DNA from: a bacterium
GTDB taxonomy: Bacteria; Patescibacteriota; Patescibacteriia; UBA9934; GWF2-40-263
Reading direction: 5' to 3'
Assembly (NCBI GenBank): GCA_020057555.1
Contig: JAGVFR010000028.1
Coordinates: 12,444-76,443 of the forward strand
Length of the DNA stretch: 64,000 bases
Each line of letters opens with the position of its first letter. The stretch's first letter is position 1. The position numbers and the translations under genes are program-made. Shown piece after piece: positions 8,057 through 34,459 of this stretch. The notes below the pieces were generated by a model, which saw only the letters and a program-made list of their open reading frames with translations, made no database searches and was not told the origin of the DNA.

Positions 8057-8120
8057 CTCTCCTCACATTCACTTTTCAAATACTATACAACCACGGCTAA
8101 AGCCGTGGGCTACAAACACT

Positions 8121-15359: not shown

Positions 15360-15362
15360 ATC

Positions 15363-16373
15363 CTATTTTAGTTTTTTATTATTCAAAAAATTATGTTGAT
15401 AAGTATATTTCCACGGAACTGCTGATCTTAAAGCCGCTCCTATTGCCGGCCCAAATGTTTGTATTTTTTTATCATCAAGACCTTTTATTGAAAAAGCGTC
15501 TCCGAGTTTAAACACCGATGAATCTTTCCCAATGATCTTATTGATCTCACTAACAGCTTGTTTGTCCAGTAAATCTAAACCAGAGATATACACAGATGTG
15601 ATTGCCTGCTCATGATTGTTAAAGTATACCAGAATTTCCTTTATTGTTTCAATAATGCTTGTTTCAATTCCCTTTATTGGAAGTTTCCGATTAACAGTTT
15701 TGACTCCAAGTTGTTTGAATGAATTTGAACGCGAATACACATTTGAACCTTTCAATGTATAAACAGTTACAGAAATCCAAGTATGCCCAACATCAACAAG
15801 AGCAATTAGATCAGTAGGTTTTGTCGGTAAATGCTCCTTGGTACGATACTTGTTAATAAATCGCAAAATTGCCTTGCTATTTGTCTCTGTTGCAATAACT
15901 TTGAATGGTGTGACACTTACTATTTCTCGAAATCCATCTGCCACATCTGAATCAACCGCATATACTGTTGTTCTCACACCTTCTGCTTCTTGGGACCCTT
16001 GAGAAATTGCCGTTTCTGCGTGTGAAAATAAAATCGGAATCTCACGTTGCGCAATGCTTAACGACTTTTCTTTTAATTTTTCTCCTTTCAACTCCTTGCC
16101 AGCAATAAAGCTATGAAAAAAAACGCGTGATTCCGGCAACAAAATTGTTGCGCGAAGCGGAGCATCTTTAAGAGATGCTGAATTAAACTCCTTCTGAAAT
16201 AAACTTTGAACTTCTTTAAGTTTCTCGACTTTTTCATCAACAATAAGTCCGTCCGGTATTTCTATTTCAATAAGTTCTTTCACAACCCCAAATATCGATA
16301 CGCGTGCGAGACGTATATGATGTTCTGAAATATCTATTCCGACTCCTGTTATTAGTTTGCTAAAAAATCGCAT
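15363..16373 (-). CDS. pilM: Type IV pilus assembly protein PilM (actin-like ATPase fold)
   Basis: N-terminal GVGIDISEHHIRLARV. C-terminal FGPAIGAALRS. Confidence 0.65.
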   Translation of the reverse strand: MRFFSKLITGVGIDISEHHIRLARVSIFGVVKELIEIEIPDGLIVDEKVEKLKEVQSLFQKEFNSASLKDAPLRATILLPESRVFFHSFIAGKELKGEKLKEKSLSIAQREIPILFSHAETAISQGSQEAEGVRTTVYAVDSDVADGFREIVSVTPFKVIATETNSKAILRFINKYRTKEHLPTKPTDLIALVDVGHTWISVTVYTLKGSNVYSRSNSFKQLGVKTVNRKLPIKGIETSIIETIKEILVYFNNHEQAITSVYISGLDLLDKQAVSEINKIIGKDSSVFKLGDAFSIKGLDDKKIQTFGPAIGAALRSAVPWKYTYQHNFLNNKKLK

Positions 16374-16374
16374 A

Positions 16375-16803
16375 TCAATTTACTTCTGCCCAATCTGTTA
16401 TATCAATCGATGTCCCAGTAACAGTAACCCCAACCTGAACTGATCTTGTGTAATCATCGCGCACAGCTTCGACATCAATCACGCAATTTCCACATGGAAC
16501 ACCTGTAATAATAATTGAACATTGCGCTGATCCAATTGTTAAACTTCCGCCACTGTAATTTGAATCGCGACTTAAACGAACCAACGCCTCTTCCGCGCAA
16601 CTTTCGGCTGAAAGCAAAGCGTCATTGCTTGCTTGCGCAGAATATCCAATATCCAGATTATCAGTTCCTATCATCGCTGTCGTGCTTATTACAATCAAAG
16701 CCATCGCAAGTACAATAATCATAACTGTGATTGCGGCCGCGCCGCGCTTGTCATCAATCCAATGGAATTCTGATGGCTGTTTGAAAATTTTCAGCATAAT
16801 CAA
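16375..16803 (-). CDS. Single-TM membrane protein in the pilus operon (PilN/PilO-like or pseudopilin-like; unassigned)
   Basis: One N-terminal TM segment AAAITVMIIVLAMALIVISTTAM. Position in the operon. Confidence 0.4.
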   Translation of the reverse strand: MIMLKIFKQPSEFHWIDDKRGAAAITVMIIVLAMALIVISTTAMIGTDNLDIGYSAQASNDALLSAESCAEEALVRLSRDSNYSGGSLTIGSAQCSIIITGVPCGNCVIDVEAVRDDYTRSVQVGVTVTGTSIDITDWAEVN

Positions 16804-17272
16804 AAAGGTCTGAATCTGAAGGATTGATAGAAGTAACAGTAAACTTCACCTGTATAATACCAATGTCTTCAACTGTTGTCAGATTTGAAAAAACTAAATT
16901 TGTTATCTTCACATCGTTTGAGCTCACAAGTACATTTCCTCCGTCTGCTTCGTTAATCTGAAACTGTCCATCATCTGAAGTAAGAGAAAAGACCGTCGGA
17001 TCAACACCAACGTCCACCATATTCAATGAAAGAACGCCCGGGTCCACACCAAATGTCGAACCACCAACATTAATTCCTTCCGCATGTCTTGCCGCGTCAT
17101 TTAATCTGTCTTGTATTAACCGCGCGTTTGCGAGCACTTCTGAAACAGCGGAAATTTTTGATCTGCTCGTAATTAAATTCATCATAAACGAAACCATGGT
17201 GACCATAATGACACCGACGATGGTAATGTAAACCACAAGTTCAACTAATGTGACACCGCGTTGATCTTTCAT
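16754..17272 (-). CDS. Minor pilin / pseudopilin. The start is probably the internal MKDQRGVTLVELVV rather than the ORF start at 17359.
   Basis: Prepilin-like N-terminus GVTLVELVVYITIVGVIMV. Confidence 0.6.
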   Translation of the reverse strand: MKDQRGVTLVELVVYITIVGVIMVTMVSFMMNLITSRSKISAVSEVLANARLIQDRLNDAARHAEGINVGGSTFGVDPGVLSLNMVDVGVDPTVFSLTSDDGQFQINEADGGNVLVSSNDVKITNLVFSNLTTVEDIGIIQVKFTVTSINPSDSDLFDYAENFQTAIRIPLD

Positions 17273-17274
17273 GT

Positions 17275-20106: not shown

Positions 20107-20110
20107 ATTT

Positions 20111-20548
20111 TTACTGTTCCACTAAACCGACTGCATTCACTGACAACACTCGAGTTTGCCCTGTTGTGCTATGTGTGAGTGTGATCGTGCCTGTGTTGCT
20201 TGTCGCTCCTGTTCGAAATTGAAAGACAACATCGCTTAGTCCGCTCAAGACAACTGCTGAAGGAAGTTCATGAACCTCATCATACGAGATATCACGACTT
20301 GCGTAATCAGTCCCGGCAAAAAGAGTAGCTTGTGTTGATGTAAAATGCGCTCCCCATACACTGTTGGCATGTTGACTGACTGTTCGCGCTTGTGCCTTGC
20401 GAAGCATCATCTCAATAACATCTGCTTCAACTTTAATCTGGCTTGAAGGAAGCGCGCTTCGAGATAGTGTGCCAACAATCGCAAAGAGAATTACAAAAAT
20501 TGAAATAACTATAAGAAGTTCAATAATCGTAAAACCTTTCTGACTCAT
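20111..20548 (-). CDS. Minor pilin with a prepilin signal
   Basis: MSQKG|FTIIELLIVISIFVILFAIV. Confidence 0.8.
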   Translation of the reverse strand: MSQKGFTIIELLIVISIFVILFAIVGTLSRSALPSSQIKVEADVIEMMLRKAQARTVSQHANSVWGAHFTSTQATLFAGTDYASRDISYDEVHELPSAVVLSGLSDVVFQFRTGATSNTGTITLTHSTTGQTRVLSVNAVGLVEQ

Positions 20549-20550
20549 AA

Positions 20551-21630
20551 CTACAAATTAAGCCCTTCTGTGACAGAATAAATCGGAGTAAATATCGCCA
20601 AAGCGACAAACCCAACACAAAGTCCGATCAAAATAAGAAGTAGCGGTTCAATAACAGTAGATAAACTCTTGGCTTTGATAGCAACTTTTTGCTCATAAAA
20701 CCTTGATAAATAAGCAAGTGTCTCGCCAATACTTCCTGAACTCTCACCAATTGCAATCATACGCTGAACCATTTTTGGATATAGCTTTGGATACGAGGAA
20801 ATAATATCAGCAAAACTTTCTCCTGATTCGATCTTGTTTCGCATATCACGAACCGACATACGATAAACATAATTTGGAAGAACATTTCCGCCAATCTCAA
20901 GCGCTTCTTGAATCGGAACTCCGCTTTGAAGCATTGTTGAAAGCATGCGCGTAAAACGCGCTCGGTTAATATCGTGCACAAAGCTGTTGATAACCGGAAT
21001 CTTCAAAACCACGCGATGAACAATAGGATCCATAAATCTCTGTCTTACCAAAACAACAAACGCCAACGCTAAAATAAGAATCGCTGGCGATAGAATATAG
21101 CCATTCTTTTGAAATTTATCCGCAAGCCACATTACAACGCGTGTTGTAAGTGGCAACTCAACATCAAGAGAGCTAAAAATTCCCGCCATTTGCGGAAGCA
21201 CGAACGTTGCCATTGCAAGCCCAAGAATCAATGTCGCGCTTATAATTATTCCTGGATACAGCATTGCTCCTTGCACGTTTCTACGAACCTCCAAATCTTT
21301 TTCCATTTGTTCAGATAAATGCGTCAAATTTTCTGAAAGAGTTCCTGTGCTCTCACCTATTTTGACGGAACTTACAAAAATCGGACCAAAAACTCCAACT
21401 TCTTTTTCCATTGCGCTACCGAGCAACTCTCCTGATTGAACATCTTCATTCACACGACGCAAAATGCTTTTCACTCGTCCGCCGAATTGCTCAACCAGCG
21501 TATCTAGAGCTTCAGGAACAGTAACCCCGGCCTTAATCATGACAGCTAAATTCTGTGTCATTGTCACAATATCAACCGTTGAAACAGGCAAGATATTTAT
21601 TTCACGTTTGTACCAAGGTTTTTTTAACAT
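20551..21630 (-). CDS. pilC: Type IV pilus platform protein PilC (GspF family)
   Basis: 359 aa polytopic protein with two GspF-like repeats. Confidence 0.8.
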   Translation of the reverse strand: MLKKPWYKREINILPVSTVDIVTMTQNLAVMIKAGVTVPEALDTLVEQFGGRVKSILRRVNEDVQSGELLGSAMEKEVGVFGPIFVSSVKIGESTGTLSENLTHLSEQMEKDLEVRRNVQGAMLYPGIIISATLILGLAMATFVLPQMAGIFSSLDVELPLTTRVVMWLADKFQKNGYILSPAILILALAFVVLVRQRFMDPIVHRVVLKIPVINSFVHDINRARFTRMLSTMLQSGVPIQEALEIGGNVLPNYVYRMSVRDMRNKIESGESFADIISSYPKLYPKMVQRMIAIGESSGSIGETLAYLSRFYEQKVAIKAKSLSTVIEPLLLILIGLCVGFVALAIFTPIYSVTEGLNL

Positions 21631-21632
21631 AT

Positions 21633-23333
21633 CTATTCTTTTGTAACTCTTAGCACTTCTTCAAGAGTAGTCTGGCCAATAAGCACTTTCCGCAAACCAT
21701 CATAAAGCATTGATGTCATTCCATTTTCCAAAGCGATCGAGTGGATCTCATCAGCATTTTTCTTTTCCATTATCGCCTCTCGAATCTTGTCGTCCACAAC
21801 CAACACCTCAAATATCCCGATACGTCCGTAAAATCCAGTACCGTGGCATACGGCACACCCCTTGCCATGAAAAGTCAGAAGAGATTTTAAAGTTTTTTCT
21901 TTGCCAACAAGCTCATCAAAATACTGTTTAACATGAGGCACTCGTAAAATTAATTGTTCTTGAAGTTTATCCATCGCGCGCGATTGAATACAACTCATGC
22001 AAATTTTTCGAACAAGACGCTGGGCAATGACTATATTTATCGTTGAAGCAAGTAAGAAATCCTCAACACCCATATCAGTCAAACGCACAAAAGCCGTTGC
22101 AGAGTCATTAGTGTGAAGAGTTGAAAGCACTAAATGGCCTGTCATGGCCGCATTCACCGCGATGCTGGCTGTTTCTTTGTCTCTGATCTCTCCAACCATA
22201 ATAATATCCGGGTCTTGTCGAACGATGGACCGCAAACCTTTTGCAAACGTGAGGCCTGTTTTCTCATTCACCTGAATTTGATTTACTCCTTCGATATCAA
22301 ACTCAACAGGATCCTCAATGGTTGTAATGTTCACCTCGCGCTGATTTAGGATACGCAACACAGCATAGAGTGTTGTGGTTTTCCCAGACCCTGTTGGACC
22401 TGTAACCAAAATAGACCCCCATGGCTTGTGTATTACGTCTGATACTTTGTTATAATCCTGCGCGCTAAAACCCAAATCTGATATCGCGTACGCGTGAGAC
22501 TGATCTGACAACAATCGCATCACAGCTTTTTCAGCGTGCGTTGTAGGTAAAATAGATATACGAATCTCCACATCATCTCCCCAAGGGGTTTTATAGACGA
22601 TCTTGCCGTCTTGCGCCGTTCGATGCTCATCAATCGCAAGTCGAGCTAAAACTTTAAGACGTGTCATAATATTTTCATGCAGACTCACAGGCAACTCGGC
22701 AATATCATGCAAAATCCCATCTTGGCGATAGCGCACTATCGTATACTTATCTTCCGGCTCGATATGAATGTCCGAAGCTCCCCCTTGATATGCGTAATCA
22801 ATTATCTTGCTCACAAGCTCGATTGTGCGTGTGTCAGCTCCAATGTCTCCAGATGCCGAACGATCAACGATCATCTTGAAAGCTTCTTTTGGATCTGTTT
22901 GAAAAAGGTGCATGTGCGAACGCAAATCTTTTGGCGTTGCATAGGAAAACTTAACTTGTTTTCGCAAATACTTTTCAAGAGTTGTGCGTTCAAGCACGTC
23001 ATCAGGTGACGAAGTGGCGACAATAATGTCTTCTTCAGTTTGTTTTATCGGAAGAAGTTCGTGTGTACGGGCAAAAGATTCAGGAATAAGAAGCGCTGTT
23101 TTGAAATCAATATCTTTCTGACGGAGATTTACAAACGGAATATCGTACCAAGCCGCTATAAGTTGCCCGACTTCTTCGTCTCTTAGCACTCCACTTGCAA
23201 CCAATACTCCGTCAATTCCTATTTCGTTCGCTTCTTTTGTTTGCGCGGCTTTATTAAATAAATCTTCTTTCACACCACCTGAAGCCACAAGAGCTTTATA
23301 TAATTGATCTTGATTCATCGACATAGTATTCAT
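21633..23333 (-). CDS. pilB: Type IV pilus assembly ATPase PilB (GspE family)
   Basis: Walker A GPTGSGKTTTLYA. A tetracysteine motif CMSC...CAVCHGTG. Confidence 0.9.
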   Translation of the reverse strand: MNTMSMNQDQLYKALVASGGVKEDLFNKAAQTKEANEIGIDGVLVASGVLRDEEVGQLIAAWYDIPFVNLRQKDIDFKTALLIPESFARTHELLPIKQTEEDIIVATSSPDDVLERTTLEKYLRKQVKFSYATPKDLRSHMHLFQTDPKEAFKMIVDRSASGDIGADTRTIELVSKIIDYAYQGGASDIHIEPEDKYTIVRYRQDGILHDIAELPVSLHENIMTRLKVLARLAIDEHRTAQDGKIVYKTPWGDDVEIRISILPTTHAEKAVMRLLSDQSHAYAISDLGFSAQDYNKVSDVIHKPWGSILVTGPTGSGKTTTLYAVLRILNQREVNITTIEDPVEFDIEGVNQIQVNEKTGLTFAKGLRSIVRQDPDIIMVGEIRDKETASIAVNAAMTGHLVLSTLHTNDSATAFVRLTDMGVEDFLLASTINIVIAQRLVRKICMSCIQSRAMDKLQEQLILRVPHVKQYFDELVGKEKTLKSLLTFHGKGCAVCHGTGFYGRIGIFEVLVVDDKIREAIMEKKNADEIHSIALENGMTSMLYDGLRKVLIGQTTLEEVLRVTKE

Positions 23334-23376
23334 AGTATACCAAAAAACAGCCTATTGTGGACTGTTTTAATAATTT

Positions 23377-23751
23377 CTAGAACTGTGACTTAATTTTCTC
23401 AACAACAACCGATATTGGCGTGTCAGATTTGATTAAATATTCTTTGGCTCCAGACGCTTTAATTTTATTCACATCTTCTTGCTGGCCAAGGTTACTTAAC
23501 ACAATAACCGGAACCGCTATTTTCTTTTTTCCCATTTCTTCCAAAACATCAAAGCCACTCATTAGGGGCATGAGAAGATCAAGCAGTACCAAATCCACTT
23601 GGTGTTTTTTTAGCGCTTCCAAACCTTCGACTCCATTTGTTGTGGTTAATACCTTAAATCCGGATTCTTCAAGGTTTGTTTTGAGGATTTCCAACAAAGC
23701 CTTTTCGTCTTCCACAATAAGGATTGTTCTTTTTTGGTCTTGTGTCCCCAT
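23377..23751 (-). CDS. Stand-alone response-regulator receiver domain (CheY/PilH-like)
   Basis: ILIVEDE...DLVLLDLLMP... Confidence 0.8.
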   Translation of the reverse strand: MGTQDQKRTILIVEDEKALLEILKTNLEESGFKVLTTTNGVEGLEALKKHQVDLVLLDLLMPLMSGFDVLEEMGKKKIAVPVIVLSNLGQQEDVNKIKASGAKEYLIKSDTPISVVVEKIKSQF

Positions 23752-23762
23752 ATTTTATAAAT

Positions 23763-25289
23763 TTATGTGTTTTGTTTAAACATGCCATCAGTCCTCAAAG
23801 GTAATATAACATGAAAAGTGGTTCCTTTGCCAACTTGCGAAGTAAAACCTATTGTTCCGCCTATTTTTTGAACAATGGATTTTACGATATAAAGCCCCAA
23901 CCCTGTCCCCTGTGTGTCCATTCTCTGGGCATTGTCAGCCCTAAACAATTTGGTGAAAATCTTGTCTTTTTGATCTTCTGGAATGCCTAATCCTGTATCT
24001 GAAACTGAAATTCGAACACTGGCGTCTTCTTTTTTTATTAACAATTCAATGTTACCTCCGTCAGGTGTGTATTTAATGGCGTTTGATAATAAATTTTGAA
24101 AAATGATTCCTGTTAGTTTTTTGTCAAGATGCATTGGCGGGATTGTGTCATCACCTGAAAAAACAAAAGAATGTTTATTCTTTGAAAACTCCGGTTCAAA
24201 CTCTTTTATAACATCACGAGCGAGTTGCATGAGATCAATAACTTCTGGTTGAATTGTAAAAGTTCCCATTTCCAATCTCGAAACATTCAACAGGGATCCG
24301 ACAAGCTCGGACATACGTTTTGAGCTTTCGTAAATTCTCTCGACAAATTGTTTTTGTTGCGGACTAAACTCGGAAGCTCTTCTGTTTGATAGCAGTGTCT
24401 CCGTATACCAGTTGATTGCGGATAATGGAGTTCTAAGTTGATGTGAAGCTAAAGACACAAACTCCGTTTTTGCTTTATCAATCTCTTTTTCTTTTGTAAC
24501 ATCGCGCACAACAGCAATGGCTCCGGTCACTTCGTTTTGAAATATGATCGGTGAAACAGTTATTGATACAGGAAAAATGGACTTATCCTTTCGTTCGTAA
24601 TAACTGACAAAAGAAGATGTCGTTCCTTCGCTTAGTGTGTGAGCCAAAGGACGTTCAGCGGACGGAATTACAGCGCCATTATCGTCCACCATTTTAATTA
24701 CATCAACCAATTTCTTACCGATTACTTCTTCCGACCTCCAACCAAGCATATCCGCCAATACTTTATTGAAAAGAACAACATCCCCTTCTTTATCTGTCGC
24801 AAGAACCCCGTCTCCAATGCTGTTTAGCATTGCTTCGTCTTTTACTTGTTCGCGCTTCAATTCGTTTTCCCTATCTTGTATGTCCTGTTGTAAATTCACA
24901 TTGGACGCTTGAAGCTTCTTTGCAAAACGATCCACAACAGAGCCAAGACGACCAATCACACCGCTCAATGCCACGTTCGAACGCGCTGTAAAGTCTCCAT
25001 GTGAAAGACGTTCTAAAACGTACACTATTTTATTTATTGACTTACTCGAGATGCGTATGAAAAGAAAAAATAGAACTAACAATAAAAATAAAATCAACCA
25101 CTGAGTTTGTGTGAAAAAAACTACCCGTAATGTTCTCCATGTATCGTGAAAGAACCTTAAGATCGTGTCTGCGTCTGAAACAAAAACCATTGATACAATT
25201 AGCAAGCCGACCAGTAGAGCGATAGAAGGAAGTAACCAATTGGGTAACCGTTTCATAATTTTTTTAGAAAGGAGTTGCTGAAATAACAC
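23763..25289 (-). CDS. Sensor histidine kinase (TM region, HAMP, PAS, HisKA, HATPase)
   Basis: SHQLRTPLSAI with the H-box. GLGLYIV with the G2 box. Confidence 0.85.
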   Translation of the reverse strand: MLFQQLLSKKIMKRLPNWLLPSIALLVGLLIVSMVFVSDADTILRFFHDTWRTLRVVFFTQTQWLILFLLLVLFFLFIRISSKSINKIVYVLERLSHGDFTARSNVALSGVIGRLGSVVDRFAKKLQASNVNLQQDIQDRENELKREQVKDEAMLNSIGDGVLATDKEGDVVLFNKVLADMLGWRSEEVIGKKLVDVIKMVDDNGAVIPSAERPLAHTLSEGTTSSFVSYYERKDKSIFPVSITVSPIIFQNEVTGAIAVVRDVTKEKEIDKAKTEFVSLASHQLRTPLSAINWYTETLLSNRRASEFSPQQKQFVERIYESSKRMSELVGSLLNVSRLEMGTFTIQPEVIDLMQLARDVIKEFEPEFSKNKHSFVFSGDDTIPPMHLDKKLTGIIFQNLLSNAIKYTPDGGNIELLIKKEDASVRISVSDTGLGIPEDQKDKIFTKLFRADNAQRMDTQGTGLGLYIVKSIVQKIGGTIGFTSQVGKGTTFHVILPLRTDGMFKQNT

Positions 25290-26175
25290 TTGTTCCAGAG
25301 CAAAGTCCGCTTACAACATCCGGCATAACAATGTTCCAATATAGCGACTTTGAAAGTCCAACATCGTCGTCTGTGCCAACACTTAAACCTGTGTTTATCG
25401 GAGAAGATGTAAGCGCGTTTGATAACACGTCTCCAGCGCCAACATCAGACAGACTCCATTGAATATCTTCTAATGGAATACTTCCGTTAACACTGCACGT
25501 CATACTCGAGCCAGACACCTCAACGGACACTATGTCGTTTCCTTGCTGGAGAAGAGTAAATTCAACATTATTCTGCGGAGTTGTCGCTTGCGCTCTAGTC
25601 AGAGTTCCAAAATCTAATGTCTGTGGAATTAAAAGCGCGAGAATTGTATTGATCTCGGTTTCTTTTATTGTTGAATCAACACTTTGCGCGTCGTCTTTGG
25701 CAACAACCTCTGCATTCCAAACTTCTGATTCGTGCGTTCCGCCAGTCATTGTTGAGTCCGCAATATAACTCAACTCTATAAGACAAGAATAATTGAGCAC
25801 AGTGCCTGAATTTGGAGTTACACTGCAATAAACACGATAACAGTCATTTGGATCAGGTGTGCAATTCGCGCCAATATTAGAGCGGTAGAATTGTAATTCA
25901 ATGGTATTTATGTCCCCGTCTTCATAACTTGTCCCGACTCCATCCTCATCAAACACTCTTCCGTTTACATAAATGTTTTTTGTCGCGCCAACAGCAGGTG
26001 TAATAGGATTTGAGACAGAATAAAAATCTGAATAATTAAAAGCGTAATTATTTACAAAAACATCCTGCACAGCTGGCGGATGGTTTACTTGCGCGCGAAC
26101 AACAGCGAAAAAAAACATTACGGTAAAAATTACCGAAATCGCAACAAAAAATTGTTTAATAAAATGTTTGTTCAT
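25264..26175 (-). CDS. Secreted protein of unknown function, paralogue A (signal peptide, Cys-rich core). The start is likely the internal MNKHFIK.
   Basis: Paralogous to 26524..27501. Conserved blocks TSY.DGD.N.I...F.RS....NCT.D.NDCY...C..T...T...Y.C.L.L...ADST..GG and LIP.T...GTLTRAQ.TT..NN.E.T..Q.GND...VEVSG..M.C. Confidence 0.6.
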   Translation of the reverse strand: MNKHFIKQFFVAISVIFTVMFFFAVVRAQVNHPPAVQDVFVNNYAFNYSDFYSVSNPITPAVGATKNIYVNGRVFDEDGVGTSYEDGDINTIELQFYRSNIGANCTPDPNDCYRVYCSVTPNSGTVLNYSCLIELSYIADSTMTGGTHESEVWNAEVVAKDDAQSVDSTIKETEINTILALLIPQTLDFGTLTRAQATTPQNNVEFTLLQQGNDIVSVEVSGSSMTCSVNGSIPLEDIQWSLSDVGAGDVLSNALTSSPINTGLSVGTDDDVGLSKSLYWNIVMPDVVSGLCSGTSVISATPF

Positions 26176-26255
26176 GTAGATTGCTTTTATTTTACCACAC
26201 TCGCTGAAAATCAAAACCCACCGAGGAAATTTCGGTGGGTTTTAGTTTTTTCTAA

Positions 26256-26501
26256 TTACTCTTTTACTGTTACAGAAGTCTTAACATCTTGATTTGCGAC
26301 TGACACAGATGTTTTAACTCCTTTTGATTCTCCTGATTTCACCACATCCTGACCTGAGCCAGGGTTCACTTTTGCTGATGATGCTTGTTGGGTCGAAGCT
26401 CCTTCAGTAACCACTTTTGGCGCGTTAAGGATTGAAATGACCAGCAACGCGGCCAATAATGCCACGACGACCCCCAGAATTGGCAAAGATTTTGAATTCA
26501 T
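26256..26501 (-). CDS. Small N-terminally anchored or secreted protein
   Basis: 81 aa with a signal/anchor SLPILGVVVALLAALLVISIL. Confidence 0.4.
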   Translation of the reverse strand: MNSKSLPILGVVVALLAALLVISILNAPKVVTEGASTQQASSAKVNPGSGQDVVKSGESKGVKTSVSVANQDVKTSVTVKE

Positions 26502-26523
26502 ACAATTACGTAGGGGTAATTTA

Positions 26524-27501
26524 TTAACTTGCGATTGCTGTTATTGTGTTTGTGCCTGAACATGTTCCTGTTACTGCGGCTGGCATGCCGATATTCCAAT
26601 ATAGAATCTTTGTAAGTGGGGTAGCATCAATTGTTCTGTAACCGATAGCAAAATTCGTATCAACTGCTGATGCAGTTAAATCAGTTCCACTACTATACAC
26701 AACATCGGTCAACGACCACTCTTGAGAAGCAATAGGAACCGTACCAAGAACAGTACAAGGCATGGTTGTTCCTGAAACTTCAACATCAGCTACATCATTG
26801 CCATTTTGTGTGATTGTCATTTCTTGATTATTCGCAGTGGTAGTTTCTTGAGCTCGTGTAAGTGTTCCATAATTAATTGTCCCAGGAATGACAAGTGAAA
26901 GCAGTGTTCCAACTTCCGCTGTATTTACAGTCGCGTTAACATTATTTGCCGTTGAATCATCGATTGCTTGCACAGAAGCTACCCATGTTTTTGTAGAGTC
27001 CGGCCCGCCTGCTGAAGTGGAATCTGCGTATGCTGCAAGGTTGAGTGTACAGTCATAATAAATCTGTGTTGCTGTATTGCCGGTGAGTGTGCAAGCAGTT
27101 GCTTTATAACAATCATTATTATCTACTGTGCAGTTTCTGCCACCACTGACATCAGAGCGAAAGAATGTCACGTTTATATCGTTCAAATCTCCGTTCGCAT
27201 AACTCGTATCAACGCCGTTTTGGTCTGTAACGGCTCCGTTGATATGGATCTCTTTTGTTGCACCAGGAACAAGTGTAATCGCGGTCGTTCCATCATTGTA
27301 CTCTGCTGTGCGACCGTTTGCCGCATTAGTGATGTATACGGAGTCCACAACAGGTGTCACGTTTGTGACGCCTGCTGATGTTGAAACGCTATCTGCTTGC
27401 GACCTAACACTAACAAGAGCCACGAGAACAAAGAGTCCAATAAGGACTAAAGCTCCTCCAAGAATCCATTGAAGGGCTGCTGAATTTTTTGTTTCAGTCA
27501 T
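26524..27501 (-). CDS. Secreted protein of unknown function, paralogue B
   Basis: See the evidence for 25264..26175. Confidence 0.6.
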   Translation of the reverse strand: MTETKNSAALQWILGGALVLIGLFVLVALVSVRSQADSVSTSAGVTNVTPVVDSVYITNAANGRTAEYNDGTTAITLVPGATKEIHINGAVTDQNGVDTSYANGDLNDINVTFFRSDVSGGRNCTVDNNDCYKATACTLTGNTATQIYYDCTLNLAAYADSTSAGGPDSTKTWVASVQAIDDSTANNVNATVNTAEVGTLLSLVIPGTINYGTLTRAQETTTANNQEMTITQNGNDVADVEVSGTTMPCTVLGTVPIASQEWSLTDVVYSSGTDLTASAVDTNFAIGYRTIDATPLTKILYWNIGMPAAVTGTCSGTNTITAIAS

Positions 27502-27579
27502 ATTATTTTTATGAAGACATTAATTTGTCTTCATTTAAGAAAATTTCTTAAAAGAATTATAGCATTTTAAGCTCGCTTC

Positions 27580-28968
27580 TCAAAAAAGTTTATCCACAGT
27601 CCCAGAATCTACAGATGGAGTTTGAGGAGAAAGAGGAGGAAGTGGTTCGTGTGGCGGTTCAGGCGAAGGTGGTGGTGGTGGTGGTGGTGGTGGTGGTGGA
27701 AGAATTACTTTTTTCTTTCGCTTGTTTCTATATAGTATAACACCAGCAAATAGCAAAACTACTAGAATACCTAAACCGATAAACGAATTTGCGAACGATC
27801 CGGCTTTTCCAAAAATTGACCCACCGATTCCTGAACCGGAAACTTCAAATGAAACTTTTTGCGCATCAGTTCGTCTTTTCCCATATTCAATATACGCTTC
27901 AATAGTATACATTCCTTTGTTTGAGCCGGGATCATATATTTCAGAAAAGACCATCTCATCGCCTCTTCCTACCACATAGCTCTTGCCTCGTAATATATCA
28001 ACCACTTCATCCCCTCGATAAACAGAAGCTACAAATACCGCGTCAACATCAACTTCACCTGTATTTTGAAACACAACATCCACTTTTACCTTTTCACCGA
28101 GATTGTAACTTGGTTTATTTACGCTCACGCCTGAAATTTCCCCTTCTTGCGCAAGAGTACCTTCTGTATAAACAATGAGCGGACTTACTGCTTGCAGTGT
28201 TCCAACTTCTGCCCCGTTTGAATAAAAGACAGCTTGCACTTTATATGACCCTTCAATAAGCTTGGGTTCAAGCATGATAGGAAATTGTTGATACGGCTTT
28301 CCAGCTATAACTGGCTCAATCCCGGAACTTGGAACCTCAACACTTTCAATAAATTTTTCATCTTCGGTATTTATAAAATCAAAACGAATTTTTTCAATTC
28401 GCCAATCAACATTTCCAGTATTGCTGACTTGATATGTTGCTTGAACTACTCTTCCAACTTCTGTTTGATCAACGGAAAACGCTTCGAGTTTATAAGCGAG
28501 ATTTTCCACGCCTCCAACAGTAACCAAAATCTGCGCCGTAACTCCGGTAACGACCATGTTGCCTGTTTTAACATCTTCACCCAAAGCTTCTTCATTTATT
28601 TTCAAAAACCGCAAACGCACTTCATAATTTCCATTTGGTGCGTCCCCTGGATTTATATCAAATTCATACTGAACAGAATTCTGCCCGCTTAACATCACAA
28701 TATCTTCCTCACCGCTTATAATAAAAGCCGCGTTTTCTCCTGCTGGAACAACATGTATCTTGACGTTACCTATGTCTTCCGGCGCACGATAAAGTCCCAC
28801 TGTTCTTGATTGTGTTGTATTTCTCAAAATTGAAGGAATCTCAACGGTCGGAGGCGACAATCCAAGCGCCAAAGCCGGATGAACGAAAAAAAAGAATCCT
28901 CCAATTATCAACAATAACGAGAGGAAACCTCCGCGCAACATACTCAAAGATAAAATTGATGTTTGCAT
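27580..28968 (-). CDS. Cell-surface protein with three tandem ~120-aa Ig-like repeats, a C-terminal TM anchor and a cytoplasmic poly-Pro tail
   Basis: Signal peptide. Repeats begin with L/I-S-P-P. ...GILVVLLFAGVILY is followed by KKKVILPPPPPPPPPPPPSPEPP. Confidence 0.6.
   Translation of the reverse strand: MQTSILSLSMLRGGFLSLLLIIGGFFFFVHPALALGLSPPTVEIPSILRNTTQSRTVGLYRAPEDIGNVKIHVVPAGENAAFIISGEEDIVMLSGQNSVQYEFDINPGDAPNGNYEVRLRFLKINEEALGEDVKTGNMVVTGVTAQILVTVGGVENLAYKLEAFSVDQTEVGRVVQATYQVSNTGNVDWRIEKIRFDFINTEDEKFIESVEVPSSGIEPVIAGKPYQQFPIMLEPKLIEGSYKVQAVFYSNGAEVGTLQAVSPLIVYTEGTLAQEGEISGVSVNKPSYNLGEKVKVDVVFQNTGEVDVDAVFVASVYRGDEVVDILRGKSYVVGRGDEMVFSEIYDPGSNKGMYTIEAYIEYGKRRTDAQKVSFEVSGSGIGGSIFGKAGSFANSFIGLGILVVLLFAGVILYRNKRKKKVILPPPPPPPPPPPSPEPPHEPLPPLSPQTPSVDSGTVDKLF
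27653..27686. repeat. (GGT)11 / (CCA)11 trinucleotide microsatellite encoding poly-proline
   Basis: ggtggtggtggtggtggtggtggtggtggtgga. Confidence 0.9.
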
Positions 28969-28974
28969 AAATCT

Positions 28975-29319
28975 TTATCTGAATGAAACAAAAACTATGA
29001 GCAGTGTGATTATTAAAAACAAACCAGACACATATAACATTGTTTTAAGTTTATCAACATTTTTGGAATATGCAAAATAAGAATGTTGATATGACGAATT
29101 TGGATCTCGAGAATAAATCTTTTCAAAACTTTTTGCCTTGTCGCTAAATGCCATTAAAGGCACATGCTTTGCATCGTCCGATGTTATGAAAGCATGAAGA
29201 ATTGTTGAAGCTAAAAAACCGATTGAGAATCCCCAAAATAATTGATAAGCGGCAATCAAACGAAATAGATCAATAAGATCTGTCATGATTGCCTGAAGTC
29301 CAAAGAAAAAATTATCCAT
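28975..29319 (-). CDS. Small integral membrane protein (2-3 TM)
   Basis: Hydrophobic segments at both ends. No recognisable motifs. Confidence 0.4.
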   Translation of the reverse strand: MDNFFFGLQAIMTDLIDLFRLIAAYQLFWGFSIGFLASTILHAFITSDDAKHVPLMAFSDKAKSFEKIYSRDPNSSYQHSYFAYSKNVDKLKTMLYVSGLFLIITLLIVFVSFR

Positions 29320-29369
29320 ACCTCTATTTTATGTTATTATATCAGAAATCACAAAGCAATTGTATACAC

Positions 29370-29882
29370 ATGTTCCTATTCTACATTAAACAGACATTCA
29401 AGATCGTTATCGCGTTCGTGTTGATTTTATTATTTGTCAGAGCTTTTATTGCTGAACCAGGACGCGTTAACGGCCGTTCAATGGAACTCACTTTTCTTGA
29501 CGAAGATTTTTTTGTTGTAAATAAATTTACGCTTTTGTTTCGCGAACCGCGTAGAGGAGACGTAGTTCAATTCATTGATCAAAAAGAGAAAAAAGTCGTT
29601 ATCAAACGCGTGATCGGGCTTCCTGGAGACAAACTCTCCATTAAAGACGGGAGGGTATTTTTACTTCAACAAAATATAGGATGGGTCGAGCTTCAGGAAA
29701 GCTATCTAGCTCCTGGAATAAAAACTTATTCAGAAACACAACAAGACACAATTTATCTTCCAGTTCCTGAACATTCATATTTTCTAATGGGAGATAATAG
29801 ACCAATGAGCGGGGACTCGCGTGTTTACGGTTCTGTTCATAGATCCGCTATTTACGGGCTTGTTATTCGACCGAATTTTTGA
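29370..29882 (+). CDS. lepB: Type I signal peptidase (LepB family)
   Basis: The catalytic Ser is in NGRSME. The Lys is in VIKRVIGLPGD. C-terminal box GDNRPMSGDSRVYG. It is oriented opposite to the flanking secreted-protein genes. Confidence 0.8.
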   Translation: MFLFYIKQTFKIVIAFVLILLFVRAFIAEPGRVNGRSMELTFLDEDFFVVNKFTLLFREPRRGDVVQFIDQKEKKVVIKRVIGLPGDKLSIKDGRVFLLQQNIGWVELQESYLAPGIKTYSETQQDTIYLPVPEHSYFLMGDNRPMSGDSRVYGSVHRSAIYGLVIRPNF

Positions 29883-31513
29883 GGCCAGTAGAGTGTGTCG
29901 TCAGAGTTAAACTCCGCTAGGTCTGCGATCGATCCATTCCTAGCATCAACAAGGGAAATTTTTTCGCGATCATCAGACAGCACACGTCGCTGAATATATA
30001 TTCCATCTTCCAAAGGATAAAACAAAGAACCGAACTGAACAAAAAACCAGCTCTTCTCCAAACGCACAAAACCAAACTTACCGGAAAATGGTTTTGTATC
30101 AAACAGCGGTTTTATCTCGGTATATTCGCTTAAATTCAGCTCAACATCTTGCGTTTTGGAAAATTTTTTCGTCCACACATCAAACACATACGCGCTGTTT
30201 GTTGTATTTACCAAAAAGAGTTGGGTTCCGTTATCCATTGGCGACACTGAAATTATTTTTTCATTCAAAATCTTATCAATAAAAATGCAATCCAATTTTG
30301 GAAAAATCTCCACTTCGTTTACGCACCAAAACGTAGTATTGTCGCTATTTCGAGTCCCTGAAAATAGAGCGTATTTCCCATAAGTATTTGTCGTAATTGA
30401 TGTTATATTCCAATCCAATTCAGAAGCGTCATAACCCTGTATTGAATTCCAATCAAAACGGAATATGTTATTAGAGTATTCTTGCTTAGCTGTGTCATCT
30501 TTTGGTATTGCGTATAATAAATTTTTTTGCGGTAAGAAAAAGTCCCATTGACCAATAATTTCTTGTTCTTCAGATATTGCTGAATTTATTATAGTACTGG
30601 TTTTATTTTGATTTGTAACAATAAAAATTGGATCCTCAATCGATATTTTTTGCGTTGTATCAACACTTACAAGCTTTGATATTATTTTTGATCGAAATAT
30701 CTGTTTGATTTGGTTACCAAAAGAACTTATCCATCTAGCTCTAAAACTTTTTTCAAAGTTGTGTTCTCCAATAGTCGCTTTAACAGCGCTTATGGTCGCC
30801 ATATCAAGCGAACCTACATCAACAAAAGTGTCTTGAACCTGCTTAGGAGAAATGGGACCTTGAAAAACAGAAACCAGACTGCTTTTTTGCCCTGTTTTTT
30901 GTGTAATATCCACTTCAAATGGAATTGATTTGAGTAATGCTTCAGAGTCGTTACGAATTGCCAATATAATTTGGCGTTTATCTTGATCTAATGAAAGCCC
31001 TTCAATAAAAACGGAATCGCCGTATTCTTTATCTGTATATTCAGTAGACTGATCAATATCGGAAGAATCCAAAAGATGTAAAATAATTTTTACTTGAGCG
31101 CCGATAAGCACTTTATTACCTGACCCAAATGACGTGCTTGTCGTACTAGTAAAATCAATAGCAGTTTCAAATTTATCCTCTGTGTCCAGAACGTTTGAAT
31201 CAATCGTGAATTTGAAAACGACGTTTCCTTCCCCAAGAGGAAGACGAACGCGCGTTCCATCAACAAACGAAAAAGCTTTGGAATTTCCATCTTTCTTTTT
31301 GACAGTGATCCATTCATCTTGTTTTGGATTCGCGCGGAGTATATTTATCTCAATTTCCGCTTTCTCACCGCGAACGACTTCTTGCTCGATAACAGAAGGA
31401 GATACTCCAAAATAACTTGCATACGCCGCATTTGGTAATAGAAACGCGAACACAAAAATGCTTAAACCTAACGCTGACGTAAAATTACGCAAAGATATAA
31501 ATTTCGGGATCAT
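29852..31513 (-). CDS. Secreted protein of unknown function (553 aa)
   Basis: Signal peptide, then YFGVSPSVIEQEVVRGEKAEIEINILRAN, an N-terminal module shared with the neighbours. Confidence 0.55.
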   Translation of the reverse strand: MIPKFISLRNFTSALGLSIFVFAFLLPNAAYASYFGVSPSVIEQEVVRGEKAEIEINILRANPKQDEWITVKKKDGNSKAFSFVDGTRVRLPLGEGNVVFKFTIDSNVLDTEDKFETAIDFTSTTSTSFGSGNKVLIGAQVKIILHLLDSSDIDQSTEYTDKEYGDSVFIEGLSLDQDKRQIILAIRNDSEALLKSIPFEVDITQKTGQKSSLVSVFQGPISPKQVQDTFVDVGSLDMATISAVKATIGEHNFEKSFRARWISSFGNQIKQIFRSKIISKLVSVDTTQKISIEDPIFIVTNQNKTSTIINSAISEEQEIIGQWDFFLPQKNLLYAIPKDDTAKQEYSNNIFRFDWNSIQGYDASELDWNITSITTNTYGKYALFSGTRNSDNTTFWCVNEVEIFPKLDCIFIDKILNEKIISVSPMDNGTQLFLVNTTNSAYVFDVWTKKFSKTQDVELNLSEYTEIKPLFDTKPFSGKFGFVRLEKSWFFVQFGSLFYPLEDGIYIQRRVLSDDREKISLVDARNGSIADLAEFNSDDTLYWPQKFGRITSP

Positions 31514-32910
31514 AAACTGAAAATTTGTAAGAATTGTTTGATGAATTTTGGAAGAGGATATTTTGGCACAACGTGAACGACAATAGTTTTTTGAACTATA
31601 TTACCAGCAAGGTCAGTCGCGTCAACAAGAAAAGAAAAAGTTCCAAATTTCAAACTTGGAATCTCTATTTTTGATTTGTTAAGTTTTTGAGGTCCGGAAG
31701 TTACTGTGTATTCTCCAACTCCGGAAAGTTGATCAGACACGTCAATCAACAAATTATGATTGGAAAATGAAAACCAAGATTGTTTTTTTGTTTCAAGATT
31801 GGCTTGAATGTTCGGAGGTTTGGTGTCTATTACAAGGCGTTGCGTTATAATTTCTCCAATTCCTTCCGCGGTTTCTCGCGCGATATGTAAAAAGTATATC
31901 CCGTCATCAAGCGAAAATGTAGCTTGCGGAGAACGTGTTTCTAAAACAAGATCGTCAAGCGATGCGTCCTGTTTTGTGTTGAGAACATACTTATAAATAG
32001 AGGCAGACTTAAGGCCTGGTATTTCAAATGTAAGAACAATGTCAGACGAAGCAAAATAAGTATTATCTTTCAAAAGCATTGAAACAGGGCTGATTAAAGA
32101 ATCGAGGGTTTGTAAACCAGGATCTGTTGATGTTTCCGAAGGTTGTTCTATCTTGCCATGTTCTTTGGAGATTTCGTTTGTATCTTGAGTCTTATCGTTA
32201 ATCATTTTTTCATCTGATGTTGATTTTGTATTCAGCAAATCTTCATTATCGGTCGTTGTAGAGACAGGAGATTCTTCAGGTGTGCCAGAATCTGGTTGAG
32301 AAATTTCTTGTGTCGTTGTTTGCTGTTCTGAATTTTGCGAGTTATCTGTCGTTGTATCTTCTTGAGTCGTTGTTTCTTCTTGACTGGAATCATTGGATGT
32401 TCCTGAAGAGCCACCAGATGAAGATCCTCCTGAACTTACAGTACCAACAGATGAAATAACTCCGGTAGAAAACACAGTCACAGCCGTAGCTCCTGTGATG
32501 ACCGAATTGCCAATTGTTCCTGAATCACCAGAAGCTGGAATCAAAAAATCAACAAATATTTCAAACGGCCCTTCAGAAGCAAAATCCGGAACTACATTAA
32601 AACTGTACCAAACCTTATCAGTTCCACTCGTTATAATCAGTTGCGGCGAACCCTGAAAATAAGCTTGTCCGCTTTTGCGCGCCGAAACATTGATTGTCAG
32701 ATCTCCGGTATTATCGTTTGCGCTTCGTATAATCCAAAGTCCAACAGTTTGCATACTGCCAACAGGAATTGTCCCAAGATCAAATTGAGGCGGTGAAATG
32801 CCAATTGCACGCGTATCGTTGACGCGAAAGAAAAAAAATACTATTGCGGTAGCACAAAATAAAATTACAAAAAAAGACAGACGGAGTGAATTTTTAAGAC
32901 TATCTTCCAT
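31510..32910 (-). CDS. Secreted protein with a Ser/Thr-rich linker (466 aa)
   Basis: Signal peptide, then AIGISPPQFDLGTIPVGSMQTVGLWIIRSAN, then a low-complexity linker SSGGSSSGGSSGTSNDSSQEETTTQEDTTTDN. Confidence 0.55.
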   Translation of the reverse strand: MEDSLKNSLRLSFFVILFCATAIVFFFFRVNDTRAIGISPPQFDLGTIPVGSMQTVGLWIIRSANDNTGDLTINVSARKSGQAYFQGSPQLIITSGTDKVWYSFNVVPDFASEGPFEIFVDFLIPASGDSGTIGNSVITGATAVTVFSTGVISSVGTVSSGGSSSGGSSGTSNDSSQEETTTQEDTTTDNSQNSEQQTTTQEISQPDSGTPEESPVSTTTDNEDLLNTKSTSDEKMINDKTQDTNEISKEHGKIEQPSETSTDPGLQTLDSLISPVSMLLKDNTYFASSDIVLTFEIPGLKSASIYKYVLNTKQDASLDDLVLETRSPQATFSLDDGIYFLHIARETAEGIGEIITQRLVIDTKPPNIQANLETKKQSWFSFSNHNLLIDVSDQLSGVGEYTVTSGPQKLNKSKIEIPSLKFGTFSFLVDATDLAGNIVQKTIVVHVVPKYPLPKFIKQFLQIFSL

Positions 32911-33002: not shown

Positions 33003-33078
33003 CGGGACGTAGCTCAGTAGGTAGAGCGCCTGGTTTGGGACCAGGAGGCCGCAGGTTCGAGCCCTGTCGTCCCGACCA
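33003..33078 (+). tRNA. tRNA-Pro (TGG), CCA encoded
   Basis: CGGGACGTAGCTCAGTAGGTAGAGCGCCTGGTTTGGGACCAGGAGGCCGCAGGTTCGAGCCCTGTCGTCCCGACCA. Confidence 0.85.
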
Positions 33079-33163
33079 ACTGCTGATAGATTCAGATGTG
33101 ACAGGACGGCTGCGTCGCTCGAGAGAGACAAACTTTGTTTATCTCTCCGCTCGCTATCCTCGC

Positions 33164-33189
33164 CGTTCGAGCCCTGTCGTCCCGACCAA
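33164..33189 (+). repeat. Perfect 25-nt direct repeat of the tRNA-Pro 3' end (T-arm plus acceptor), about 110 nt downstream of the gene. att-site-like duplication.
   Basis: gttcgagccctgtcgtcccgaccaa occurs at 33054-33078 and again at 33164-33188. The 85-nt spacer contains an imperfect palindrome gagagagacaaactttgtttatctctc. Confidence 0.8.
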
Positions 33190-33208
33190 TTCAACAAAAA
33201 ATGCAATC

Positions 33209-33282
33209 GCGGGTATCGTATAATGGTAATACTCCAGTTTTCCAAACTGGCACCAGGGGTTCGATTCCCCTTACCCGCTCCA
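33209..33282 (+). tRNA. tRNA-Gly (TCC), CCA encoded
   Basis: GCGGGTATCGTATAATGGTAATACTCCAGTTTTCCAAACTGGCACCAGGGGTTCGATTCCCCTTACCCGCTCCA. Confidence 0.85.
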
Positions 33283-33428: not shown

Positions 33429-33803
33429 TCAGCAGTGCAACACTGTTCGCGGACCATGGATGAAGGCAAAAGCCCGAGGACCTCTTGGTAGTTGGTCAAC
33501 CTCGGTTCCTTCTTCAGTATGAATGAAGGCAAACGTCGCCTGTTTGAACAGTATGGAGATGTCCGAATCCAACACCGCTCCCGGCATCGGCTGTGTTGTC
33601 TCGTTCTCGCCCATGAAGAGCGCGATGTTGCTGAAGATCAGGCTGATGTCACAGTCAGCTGTATCCCGAACTTGTACGCCGATTTCACTTCCTTGCGCTT
33701 CCGCCAACGACTGAGGTCCGGTGGTGTCTGCCTTCTGCGGTCTAGCGATCGCCGTTCCGCAGACAAGCAACACTACCGCAAGGATCCCAAGAATCTTTTT
33801 CAT
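33429..33803 (-). CDS. Small secreted protein (~124 aa), GC-rich gene. The start is the internal MKKILGILAVVLLV of the 184-aa ORF.
   Basis: Signal peptide. AAGGA ribosome-binding site. Its own terminator GGAGCGATTaaactcAATCGCTCC plus a T run at ~33380-33410. About 52% GC. Confidence 0.5.
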   Translation of the reverse strand: MKKILGILAVVLLVCGTAIARPQKADTTGPQSLAEAQGSEIGVQVRDTADCDISLIFSNIALFMGENETTQPMPGAVLDSDISILFKQATFAFIHTEEGTEVDQLPRGPRAFAFIHGPRTVLHC

Positions 33804-33976
33804 GGTTTTTCCTTCGGTTGTTGTTGTACTTGTAACAAGAAAGCCCGCTCTCTTTTTGCCATCATCCAAAAACATCCAGTCTCCGCCTCCTTTCTGACTG
33901 TGTCTTTGGATAACAACCGAGACAGCTCTTGATCCCCGAACTTCAGAAACCAAGAGCTGGCACGGTGAATATAATC

Positions 33977-34459
33977 TTACCACTTTTTGTTTGCCATTGT
34001 TATAGCGGCCGCGAGCGCGTCTGCCGCGTCGTCTGGTTTTGGAGGTTTTGGTAAATGCAGAATTTCTTTTACCATTTTTTGCATTCCAGCTTTTGTCGCG
34101 GCACCGTTTCCTGTCATAGCTTTTTTAATTTGCGCTGGAGTAAATTCAAACACAGGAGTTCCTGATTGAGCGGCCATTAGCATTGCAACTCCGCGCGCTT
34201 CAGCAACACACATTGCAGTTGACGAACTTTTCCCAAAAAATAATTTCTCAATCGCAACAGCATGCGGTTTGTGATGCGCGAACAAGTCGCCCAAATCATT
34301 CGCCAAACTTAACAAACGATTTTCAAACGCGTCACCGCTTGTTGTAACCATAACTCCATAATCAACAAGTTCGACTGCTCCTGCATTTACGAAAATAACT
34401 CCAAATCCCATTCGGCCGTATCCCGGATCAAGACCCATCAAAATGTAACCTTGTTCCAT
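33977..34459 (-). CDS. ruvC: Holliday junction resolvase RuvC
   Basis: ILMGLDPGYGRMGFGVI...AVAIEKLFF...DAADALAAAI. Confidence 0.85.
   Translation of the reverse strand: MEQGYILMGLDPGYGRMGFGVIFVNAGAVELVDYGVMVTTSGDAFENRLLSLANDLGDLFAHHKPHAVAIEKLFFGKSSSTAMCVAEARGVAMLMAAQSGTPVFEFTPAQIKKAMTGNGAATKAGMQKMVKEILHLPKPPKPDDAADALAAAITMANKKW

Follow-up and report, generated by a model that had tools for sequence, protein, structure and literature searches.

A conserved gene block with an embedded LepB signal peptidase in a Parcubacteria-type genome: a candidate surface assembly module

What does a signal peptidase gene do when it stands, against the direction of its neighbours, among genes for secreted proteins that no family model recognizes? 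The question is raised by a block at positions 25264-32910 of a 64,000-nucleotide stretch of DNA (the window; contig JAGVFR010000028.1, positions 12,444 to 76,443 of the forward strand, assembly GCA_020057555.1) from a Parcubacteria-type bacterium of the candidate phyla radiation (CPR). The block encodes seven secreted or membrane proteins and, on the opposite strand, a LepB-type signal peptidase I, and it lies beside the genes of a type IV pilus (T4P). An earlier reading of this stretch (the original prediction) had suggested a dedicated secretion and processing module for a surface structure. CPR bacteria account for a sizeable part of bacterial diversity and attach to other cells to live, and such surface structures are thought to be the means by which CPR episymbionts reach and hold their hosts; to our knowledge, it is only for a handful of cultivated Saccharibacteria that the attachment structures of CPR bacteria have been described. 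From our analysis, the block is likely to be a dedicated surface module that includes its LepB. That the product of the module is a donor-strand fibre is put forward tentatively. The best explanation as a whole, which we hold to be evenly balanced between right and wrong, is that of a self-contained, co-inherited surface assembly module of Parcubacteria-type CPR bacteria that builds such a fibre.

Conservation of the block and its signal peptidase

The open reading frames (ORFs) that the original prediction had described within 25264-32910 were all recovered. It had counted five to six secreted or surface proteins beside lepB; the number is seven, as p114 was missing from its list, while their secreted or surface nature is borne out by an N-terminal hydrophobic segment in every block protein, a second, C-terminal transmembrane segment (TM) in p462, and two TMs in p114. 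In a comparison of loci (given here by their L numbers), the full set of eight orthologues, in collinear order and with an opposite-strand lepB separating the p553-like from the p114-like gene, is present in L002/L010 (a Uhrbacteria contig), L003, L005, L012/L013 (from Hainich groundwater), L014, and a 686-kb contig (686,616 bp, encoding MDG1949290.1) that was seen as a gene list only. The order that is kept is p466, p553, lepB, p114, p462, p325, p81, and p316, with extra paralogues in places. The core of lepB, p114, p462, and p325 is found also in L006, L007, L008 (rearranged), L009, and L017; about a dozen distinct CPR loci carry the module, and the flanking genes vary by locus. Even the convergent overlap of the 3' ends of lepB and p553, which is 31 nt long in the window, is kept in relatives. 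The original prediction had held that unrelated, non-syntenic neighbours in relatives would speak against a dedicated module, and what the relatives hold is the eight genes in conserved order. Judged by this gene order, the block is a conserved module and not a chance neighbourhood. Scans with Pfam and NCBIfam placed no family over threshold on any of the seven non-peptidase proteins, for which the original prediction had likewise been unable to name a family, and Rfam gave nothing relevant in or near the block.

The signal peptidase gene (29370-29882, plus strand, 170 aa) is the sole plus-strand gene in the block and its product is of LepB type, both as had been claimed. It matches PF10502 (Peptidase_S26; 127.6 bits, E 6e-37, cut-off 22.9) and the NCBIfam model TIGR02227 (sigpep_I_bact; 130.1 bits, E 7e-38, cut-off 47). 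A TM anchor occupies residues 1-33 of the 170-aa form, and the boxes with the catalytic Ser (GRSMELT) and the catalytic Lys (KRVIGLPGD) and box E (GDNRPMSGDSR, i.e., GDNRxxSxDSR) are invariant in three block LepBs. As the Ser, Lys, and GDNRxxSxDSR boxes are intact, the enzyme is predicted to be an active P-type LepB, neither SipW-type nor inactive SipA-like, and the parallel with SipW and SipA drawn in the original prediction is not sustained. A SipW/ER-type (S26B) identity was ruled out by the score against the archaeal/SipW-type model TIGR02228 (23.5 bits, below the cut-off of 51.85) and by the Lys at the box D position.

Among the best 120 of 533 matches, the homologues of this LepB form a tight clade of about 51 clusters (at least 44% identity, 129-352 bits), outside which lie generic CPR LepBs (35-41% identity, about 100 bits); the edge of the clade stands at 129 bits against 114 for the nearest generic CPR LepBs. 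Scanning 185,579 species genomes from the LepB side returned six close relatives, all six inside the module, and the scan from the p325 side found lepB in seven of the seven loci that reach far enough (the 686-kb contig, L002, L003, L012, L013, L014, and L017). No second S26 gene was found in the 64-kb window or in the approximately 240 kb of compared loci, a length that covers little of a genome. Upstream of the window, the stretch L018 holds housekeeping genes only and no further lepB, and the trmD/rpsP neighbourhood in the window has no rplS-lepB pair.

Subunits, partner proteins, and neighbouring genes

The candidate major subunit p325 (26524-27501, minus strand) and p316 (25264-26214, with a likely ATG start at 26175, minus strand) are paralogues, as had been proposed (43% identity, E 1e-75), and both carry the motifs NCT.D.NDCY and GTLTRAQ.TT..NN. 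The description of the pair as Cys-rich holds only in the sense of six Cys that are conserved in the mature proteins of the family, of which the N-terminal domain holds four and the C-terminal domain two (three pairs); the seventh Cys of p316, Cys6, lies within the N-terminal leader. The predicted structure of p325 (pLDDT 85.8) consists of two beta-sandwich domains at residues 51-181 and 192-324. Its long signal peptide, which is conserved to an unusual degree, ends in SQA↓D (with D37 as the predicted mature N-terminus), after which comes a conserved extension of 10-14 residues that is of low confidence or unstructured in the model. The signal peptide, this extension, and the C-terminal domain are conserved at least as well as the N-terminal domain. 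In p316, a candidate distal or minor subunit, the signal peptide differs and the extension is absent. This extension-less class is the last paralogue in four loci (p316 in the window, and L002, L003, and L005), which is indicative that two subunit classes, with and without the N-terminal extension, are recurrent among the two to seven p325-type paralogues of a locus. Foldseek searches against PDB libraries, a route that the original prediction had pointed to for the paralogues, put Csu pilins at the top for p325: the best match is the two-domain Csu tip subunit CsuE (E 8e-5, prob 1.0), RbmA comes third, and CsuA/B is matched with prob 1.0. A PDB profile search with the p325 family gave no match at E up to 10, and a profile-profile comparison of the p325 and p462 families showed no relation.

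The subunit family is large. An exhaustive profile search found 2,478 p325-type clusters at 50% identity, 884 of them below 1e-30, so that the family is commoner than a word-based search had implied; the query of the metagenome scan was made of the nine closer sequences from the 23-sequence p325-family alignment. The p325-type module occurs alone, N-terminally ahead of other domains, or at the extreme C-terminus of proteins that reach about 2,200 aa, and the C-terminal fusions begin at profile position ~43-48, just past the extension. The passengers are lectin or adhesin domains (Laminin_G_3, RCC1, Fib_succ_major/Lcl_C, PKD, fn3, and SdrD_B), and the family members that carry a name belong to Parcubacteria, Kaiserbacteria, and Uhrbacteria. 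At L004 (1129-17367), a distant variant of the locus encodes a 2,898-aa protein (Laminin_G_3, DUF2341) that ends in a p325-type module, a 553-aa protein with a C-terminal p325-type module, and p553-like and p462-like proteins, two with SH3_3 domains.

Directly after the first p325-type gene there is always p81 (26256-26501, minus strand), a small N-terminally anchored protein in which the TM anchor and a hairpin-like C-terminal double motif, V.TSV.V-A(N/D)..V.TSV.V, are conserved and the linker between them is variable. An intrinsic terminator with a 13-14 bp GC-rich stem and a T-run follows p81 (26213-26243, minus strand), and a terminator stands at the same position, with differing stem sequences, after the p81 orthologue in nine of nine loci. 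The best promoter-like site of the region, a sigma-70-like consensus match (TTGAGA-16-TGcTATAAT, 11/12 consensus positions), lies 5' of p325 (27556-27583, minus strand), and sites comparable to it precede the first p325-type gene in five of the nine loci. With a promoter-like site on its 5' side and a conserved terminator on its 3' side, p325-p81 has the appearance of a separate, strongly expressed unit, and from these signals its expression pattern looks like the one expected for a major structural subunit.

The remaining proteins are longer or more firmly held in the membrane. The original prediction had described p462 (27580-28968, minus strand) as three Ig-like repeats followed by a TM and a poly-Pro tail, and the AlphaFold model (pLDDT 81) agrees: three beta-sandwich domains of CARDB/PapD-like type are followed by a TM helix and a Pro-rich tail. 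Its signal peptide ends in a conserved AxA↓LGLSPP, and a KRRKK stop-transfer and the Pro-rich, predicted cytoplasmic tail come after the C-terminal TM; the bacterium itself is taken to be a monoderm, in line with general reports on CPR bacteria. At the start of the module, p466 (31510-32910, minus strand) encodes a signal peptide, an Ig-like 'A↓IGISPP' N-terminal domain, a Ser/Thr/Glu-rich linker, and a C-terminal domain, and has orthologues in L003, L005, L012, and L014. The secreted p553 (29852-31513, minus strand) has a variable C-terminal part. An N-terminal module shared by these three proteins had been proposed. For p462 and p466 the relation is direct (31% identity over 136 aa, E 8e-14), and for p553 it is transitive only, since its 'GVSPS' domain is tied to the p462/p466 family through L002 and L009 orthologues that match both. 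The p553 part has the lowest GC content in the window (0.357). The small membrane protein p114 (28975-29319, minus strand) has two TMs, GF motifs, and a His (His42) that is invariant. Its gene is in every case the nearest one to lepB on the divergent side, and its orthologues (E 1e-8 to 9e-65) were found in the loci that reach this position. The 50 bp between lepB and p114 (29320-29369) are a candidate shared control region; the divergent arrangement is found also in L002, L003, and the 686-kb contig, with gaps of 29-94 bp.

The block had been described as lying downstream of a T4P operon headed by a histidine kinase. All these genes are on the minus strand, and the block therefore lies 5', i.e., transcriptionally upstream, of the kinase (TM-HAMP-PAS-HisKA-HATPase, 23763-25289), the stand-alone receiver directly before pilB (23377-23751), and the T4P genes (PilB, PilC, pilins, a 943-aa LVIVD-repeat protein, and PilM; 14841-23333). 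The stop of p316 overlaps or abuts the start of the kinase, and kinase and receiver are translationally coupled to p316. The kinase and/or the receiver follow the paralogues in most loci that are long enough (L002, L003, L005, L011, L012, L013, and L017). Adjoining T4P genes, arranged in three different ways, are present in 3-4 of about 12 loci, namely the window, L011, L002/L010, and L003. In the 686-kb contig and L008, the 10 kb around the module are free of T4P genes, and so are those sides of L005 and L007 that are sequenced. Because kinase and receiver follow the module in most loci and the T4P genes in some only, the kinase belongs with the block rather than at the head of the pilus operon, and the co-occurrence with the T4P locus, which had been named as a point to check, is recurrent but optional.

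The receiver after the module (in the window, L002, L003, L005, L011, L013, and L017) is always stand-alone, of about 124 aa, and free of an output domain, which, with its position directly before pilB in the window, suggests a protein-protein rather than a transcriptional output. The LVIVD-repeat (beta-propeller) protein at 17275-20106, among the T4P pilin genes, has conserved counterparts in L003, L010, and L011; it is possibly an adhesin associated with the pilus. The region of T4P, kinase/receiver, and module genes (14841-32910) is flanked by tRNA-Ile on one side and by tRNA-Pro and tRNA-Gly on the other (14553-14629; 33003-33282), and no integrase was seen.

The structure that the module may build

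If the module builds a donor-strand fibre, its subunits would be exported by Sec and retained in the membrane through their unusually long, conserved signal peptides, and the LepB of the module would cleave them at SQA↓D (p325 type) and at AxA↓LGLSPP (p462, p466, and p553 type). The two-domain, disulfide-bonded p325-type subunits would then polymerise by beta-strand exchange into a thin, pilus-like fibre akin to the CPR Pam pili and to chaperone-usher, TasA, and tafi fibres. In such a fibre p325 would be the abundant major subunit, and the p316-type paralogues and the large proteins with a C-terminal module would be distal or adhesin subunits. Conceivably, p462 would act as a membrane-anchored chaperone or tether, p81 as a membrane-tethered strand donor that anchors or terminates the fibre, and p466 and p553 as accessory surface proteins that dock through their common N-terminal domain. 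The kinase and the single-domain receiver may couple the structure to regulation, possibly of the neighbouring T4P. We prefer a fibre to other products because the pilin matches, weak as they are, rank at the top, because there are two subunit classes and a major-subunit expression unit, because the extension-less C-terminal fusions resemble tip adhesins, and because precedents exist.

A dedicated module could also make something other than a filament. We consider it rather unlikely that the product is a WxL/Csc-like surface complex or an S-layer-like lattice on a membrane stalk; in the WxL/Csc-like version, p325 and p316 would be stand-alone anchoring modules, the large fusions would carry the adhesins, and p462 would be the membrane-anchored interacting protein. 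The cluster design fits this version (see the comparison below), but the WxL, DUF916, and DUF3324 models found no match in 23 p325-family and 13 p462-family members even at E up to 1, the matches to WxLIP and S-layer proteins were no better than dozens of generic Ig-like ones, and two subunit classes with and without extension, together with Csu pilins as top matches, suit a polar polymer better. Nor do we give any appreciable credence to the block as a true homologue of a TasA/SipW (or BsaA/SipW) matrix-fibre operon, the paradigm on which the original prediction had drawn. The operon logic is the same, a peptidase with paralogous secreted subunits, and domain 3 of p462 has a marginal profile match to the TasA N-terminus (E 0.02). 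However, the peptidase is P-type (Ser/Lys), with the TIGR02228 score of 23.5 far under its cut-off of 51.85 and 130 bits against TIGR02227; none of the 23 p325-family members matched Peptidase_M73 at E up to 1; and hhalign of the p325 family against TasA gave a probability of 0.1%. The match of p462 sits in a generic CARDB-like motif of an anchored protein that is not the candidate subunit, and TasA homology of p462 was rejected on account of the negative hhalign result and the lack of a Peptidase_M73 match. By Pfam and hhalign, no block protein is detectably TasA-like.

The tie between the enzyme and its neighbours may also be questioned, as lepB could be the sole housekeeping signal peptidase, standing beside surface genes with no specific enzyme-substrate relation. 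CPR genomes are small, no second S26 gene came to light in the 64-kb window or the roughly 240 kb of compared loci, and the enzyme is an ordinary, active, minimal P-type LepB that is only moderately separated from generic CPR LepBs (129 against 114 bits among the best 120 of 533 matches). We nevertheless find this reading improbable: lepB keeps its place and its orientation in about 12 loci with differing flanks and 41-60% protein identity, no member of its clade was found outside the module in the 185,579 species genomes, a relative without the module (L019) uses a different, generic LepB beside hisS, and the signal peptides and cleavage sites of the putative substrates are unusually conserved. 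Even a sole copy of LepB could be functionally coupled to the module. Very improbable, in our judgement, is that the block proteins are cargo or matrix exported through the wall by the adjacent T4P acting as a Gram-positive type II-like system, as for BsaC/BsaA, with the kinase and receiver controlling both. In the window, L011, L002/L010, and L003 the module does stand next to T4P genes, in three arrangements, the single-domain receiver stands directly before pilB, and a precedent exists in the T4P-dependent secretion of sipW-bsa products (bioRxiv 10.1101/2024.11.04.621531). Against this stand the loci that lack T4P genes in the nearest 10 kb (the 686-kb contig and L008) or on the sequenced sides (L005 and L007), and the lack of any resemblance of the block proteins to pilins or T4P parts in Pfam. 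Export by the T4P is, however, compatible with the donor-strand fibre and not exclusive of it.

Several observations weigh against the donor-strand fibre module that we favour. The Foldseek matches of p325 are weak, with TM-scores of just 0.3-0.46, and no sequence-level link was found between the block proteins and the pilin, TasA, or WxL families. The promoter evidence for p325 is a consensus match only, and promoter-like sites over the whole region are not enriched (27 against 25.1 in shuffles). The relative L019 has a lone p325-like gene, and its only visible LepB is generic (34% identical) and lies next to hisS; the distant variant L004 is without lepB. From these two loci it follows that the p325 subunit family does not strictly need this LepB. 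Pam pili, a CPR precedent (bioRxiv 10.64898/2026.03.03.709456), are found mainly in Saccharimonadia and Microgenomatia, whereas the present module is found in Parcubacteria-, Uhrbacteria-, and Kaiserbacteria-type genomes, and the Pam preprint mentions no signal peptidase, kinase/receiver pair, or T4P neighbour. A bolder form of the donor-strand fibre reading is quite unlikely: the module would be a usher-less, chaperone-usher-like Parcubacteria pilus in which release by the P-type LepB is coupled to strand-exchange polymerisation, p81 supplies the terminating strand, the kinase and receiver wire the fibre to the T4P motor as a circuit for sensing and capturing host contacts, and the subunit module belongs to a very large unannotated family that displays lectin and adhesin domains.

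If the donor-strand fibre module is real, it would carry the donor-strand pili recently described in CPR bacteria over to the Parcubacteria branch, with a new ingredient in the co-inherited LepB and a genetic link to a two-component system and often to T4P. The large subunit family, which has no Pfam or NCBIfam model, offers a handle for cataloguing host-binding proteins in uncultivated lineages. Concrete, testable predictions follow from the two subunit classes, from the conservation of the cleavage sites, and from the major-subunit unit with its terminator.

Elsewhere in the window, a complete 16S rRNA gene stands alone at 10044-11521 (plus strand), with no 23S rRNA gene in the window; about 100 bp past it comes a LAGLIDADG homing-endonuclease ORF (11624-12274; Pfam 7e-42), and then tRNA-Phe on the other strand. 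The approximately 850 bp between smc and rpsP (7240-8100) hold no convincing ORF, only short overlapping ones on both strands, and gave no Rfam match at E 0.1; this gap may be an undescribed RNA or a decayed gene. Two ORFs in GC-richer stretches (0.45-0.48), at 42497-43639 (380 aa) and 33429-33983 (184 aa), match no Pfam or NCBIfam family, and the 184-aa ORF has a lipoprotein-like signal.

Comparison with known systems

The WxL/Csc clusters of Lactobacillales comprise small module-only proteins, large proteins with a C-terminal module, an Ig-like WxLIP with a C-terminal TM, and a small anchored protein (PMC10599100), and in this cluster design the present module is much like them. They differ in having an LPXTG protein and a sortase and no signal peptidase. 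W-x-L-like motifs (WSL, WNI) are visible by eye in the p325 family, which is insufficient for WxL membership, and the identity was rejected on the profile searches described above. Sortase-assembled pili were rejected as well, as none of the block proteins has an LPXTG-like motif in its last 60 residues and none of the window ORFs has a TLxTC sortase motif. A type IV pilin identity was likewise rejected by Pfam, in which the N_methyl/class III signal peptide was matched in no block protein and is present only in the neighbouring pilin genes. Among solved structures, the best matches of p325 come from the Csu archaic chaperone-usher pili of Acinetobacter baumannii, with the two-domain tip subunit CsuE and with CsuA/B, which has a conserved disulfide. 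The block has no usher and no PapD-family protein by Pfam (no match to Usher, PapD_N, or PapD_C), and it was not assigned to the chaperone-usher systems.

Alike in operon design are the TasA-SipW-TapA system of Bacillus subtilis and the Bsa system, in which a signal peptidase shares an operon with paralogous secreted subunits and the fibres grow by donor-strand exchange. For the sipW-bsaA-bsaB-bsaC operon of C. perfringens, growth has been proposed to take place with the incoming subunit still retained through its signal peptide, and export of the Bsa fibre depends on T4P proteins (bioRxiv 10.1101/2024.11.04.621531). Unlike the P-type LepB of the present module, SipW is of the ER/archaeal type; the lineage is also another one, and the present module has a multi-Ig membrane-anchored protein. 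An oppositely transcribed signal peptidase I is the feature shared with the tafi cluster (tafA-G) of Haloarcula hispanica, a fibre gene cluster with its own enzyme. There, the opposite-strand TafD is required for processing of the major subunit, and assembly is proposed to follow a donor-strand model that assigns tip, adapter, core, and anchor roles to the proteins (PMC11821415). In contrast to the present module, tafi is archaeal and Tat-exported, TafD is a four-TM, two-domain enzyme of Ser/His type with a DUF5305, and the subunit sequences are unrelated.

A further likeness is with the Pam pili of Candidatus Mycosynbacter amalyticus, and it rests on the published description of the Pam proteins rather than on their sequences or models. 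According to the preprint (bioRxiv 10.64898/2026.03.03.709456), Pam pilins are two-domain Ig-like proteins with Cys pairs that assemble by donor-strand exchange, helped by chaperones resembling PapD/FimC and by an RbmA-like tether, all of which a C-terminal TM anchors; an envelope-spanning machine plays no part. The present module differs in having LepB, the two-TM p114, and the N-terminally anchored p81, and no single-domain tip pilin was seen in it. Both systems are CPR-specific, with several paralogous pilins or subunits per operon, and in both the subunits are Sec-exported two-domain proteins with 2-3 Cys pairs; the C-terminal domain, chaperone-usher-pilin-like in Pam, may be so in the present module too. 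They also share RbmA-like folds, the lack of a trans-envelope machine, and an Ig-domain protein with a C-terminal TM, which in the present module is a putative helper. In its predicted structure, p325 itself has the features by which Pam pilins are defined: it appears to be a secreted protein in which a linker joins an N-terminal beta-sandwich domain to an Ig-like one at the C-terminus, with paired Cys.

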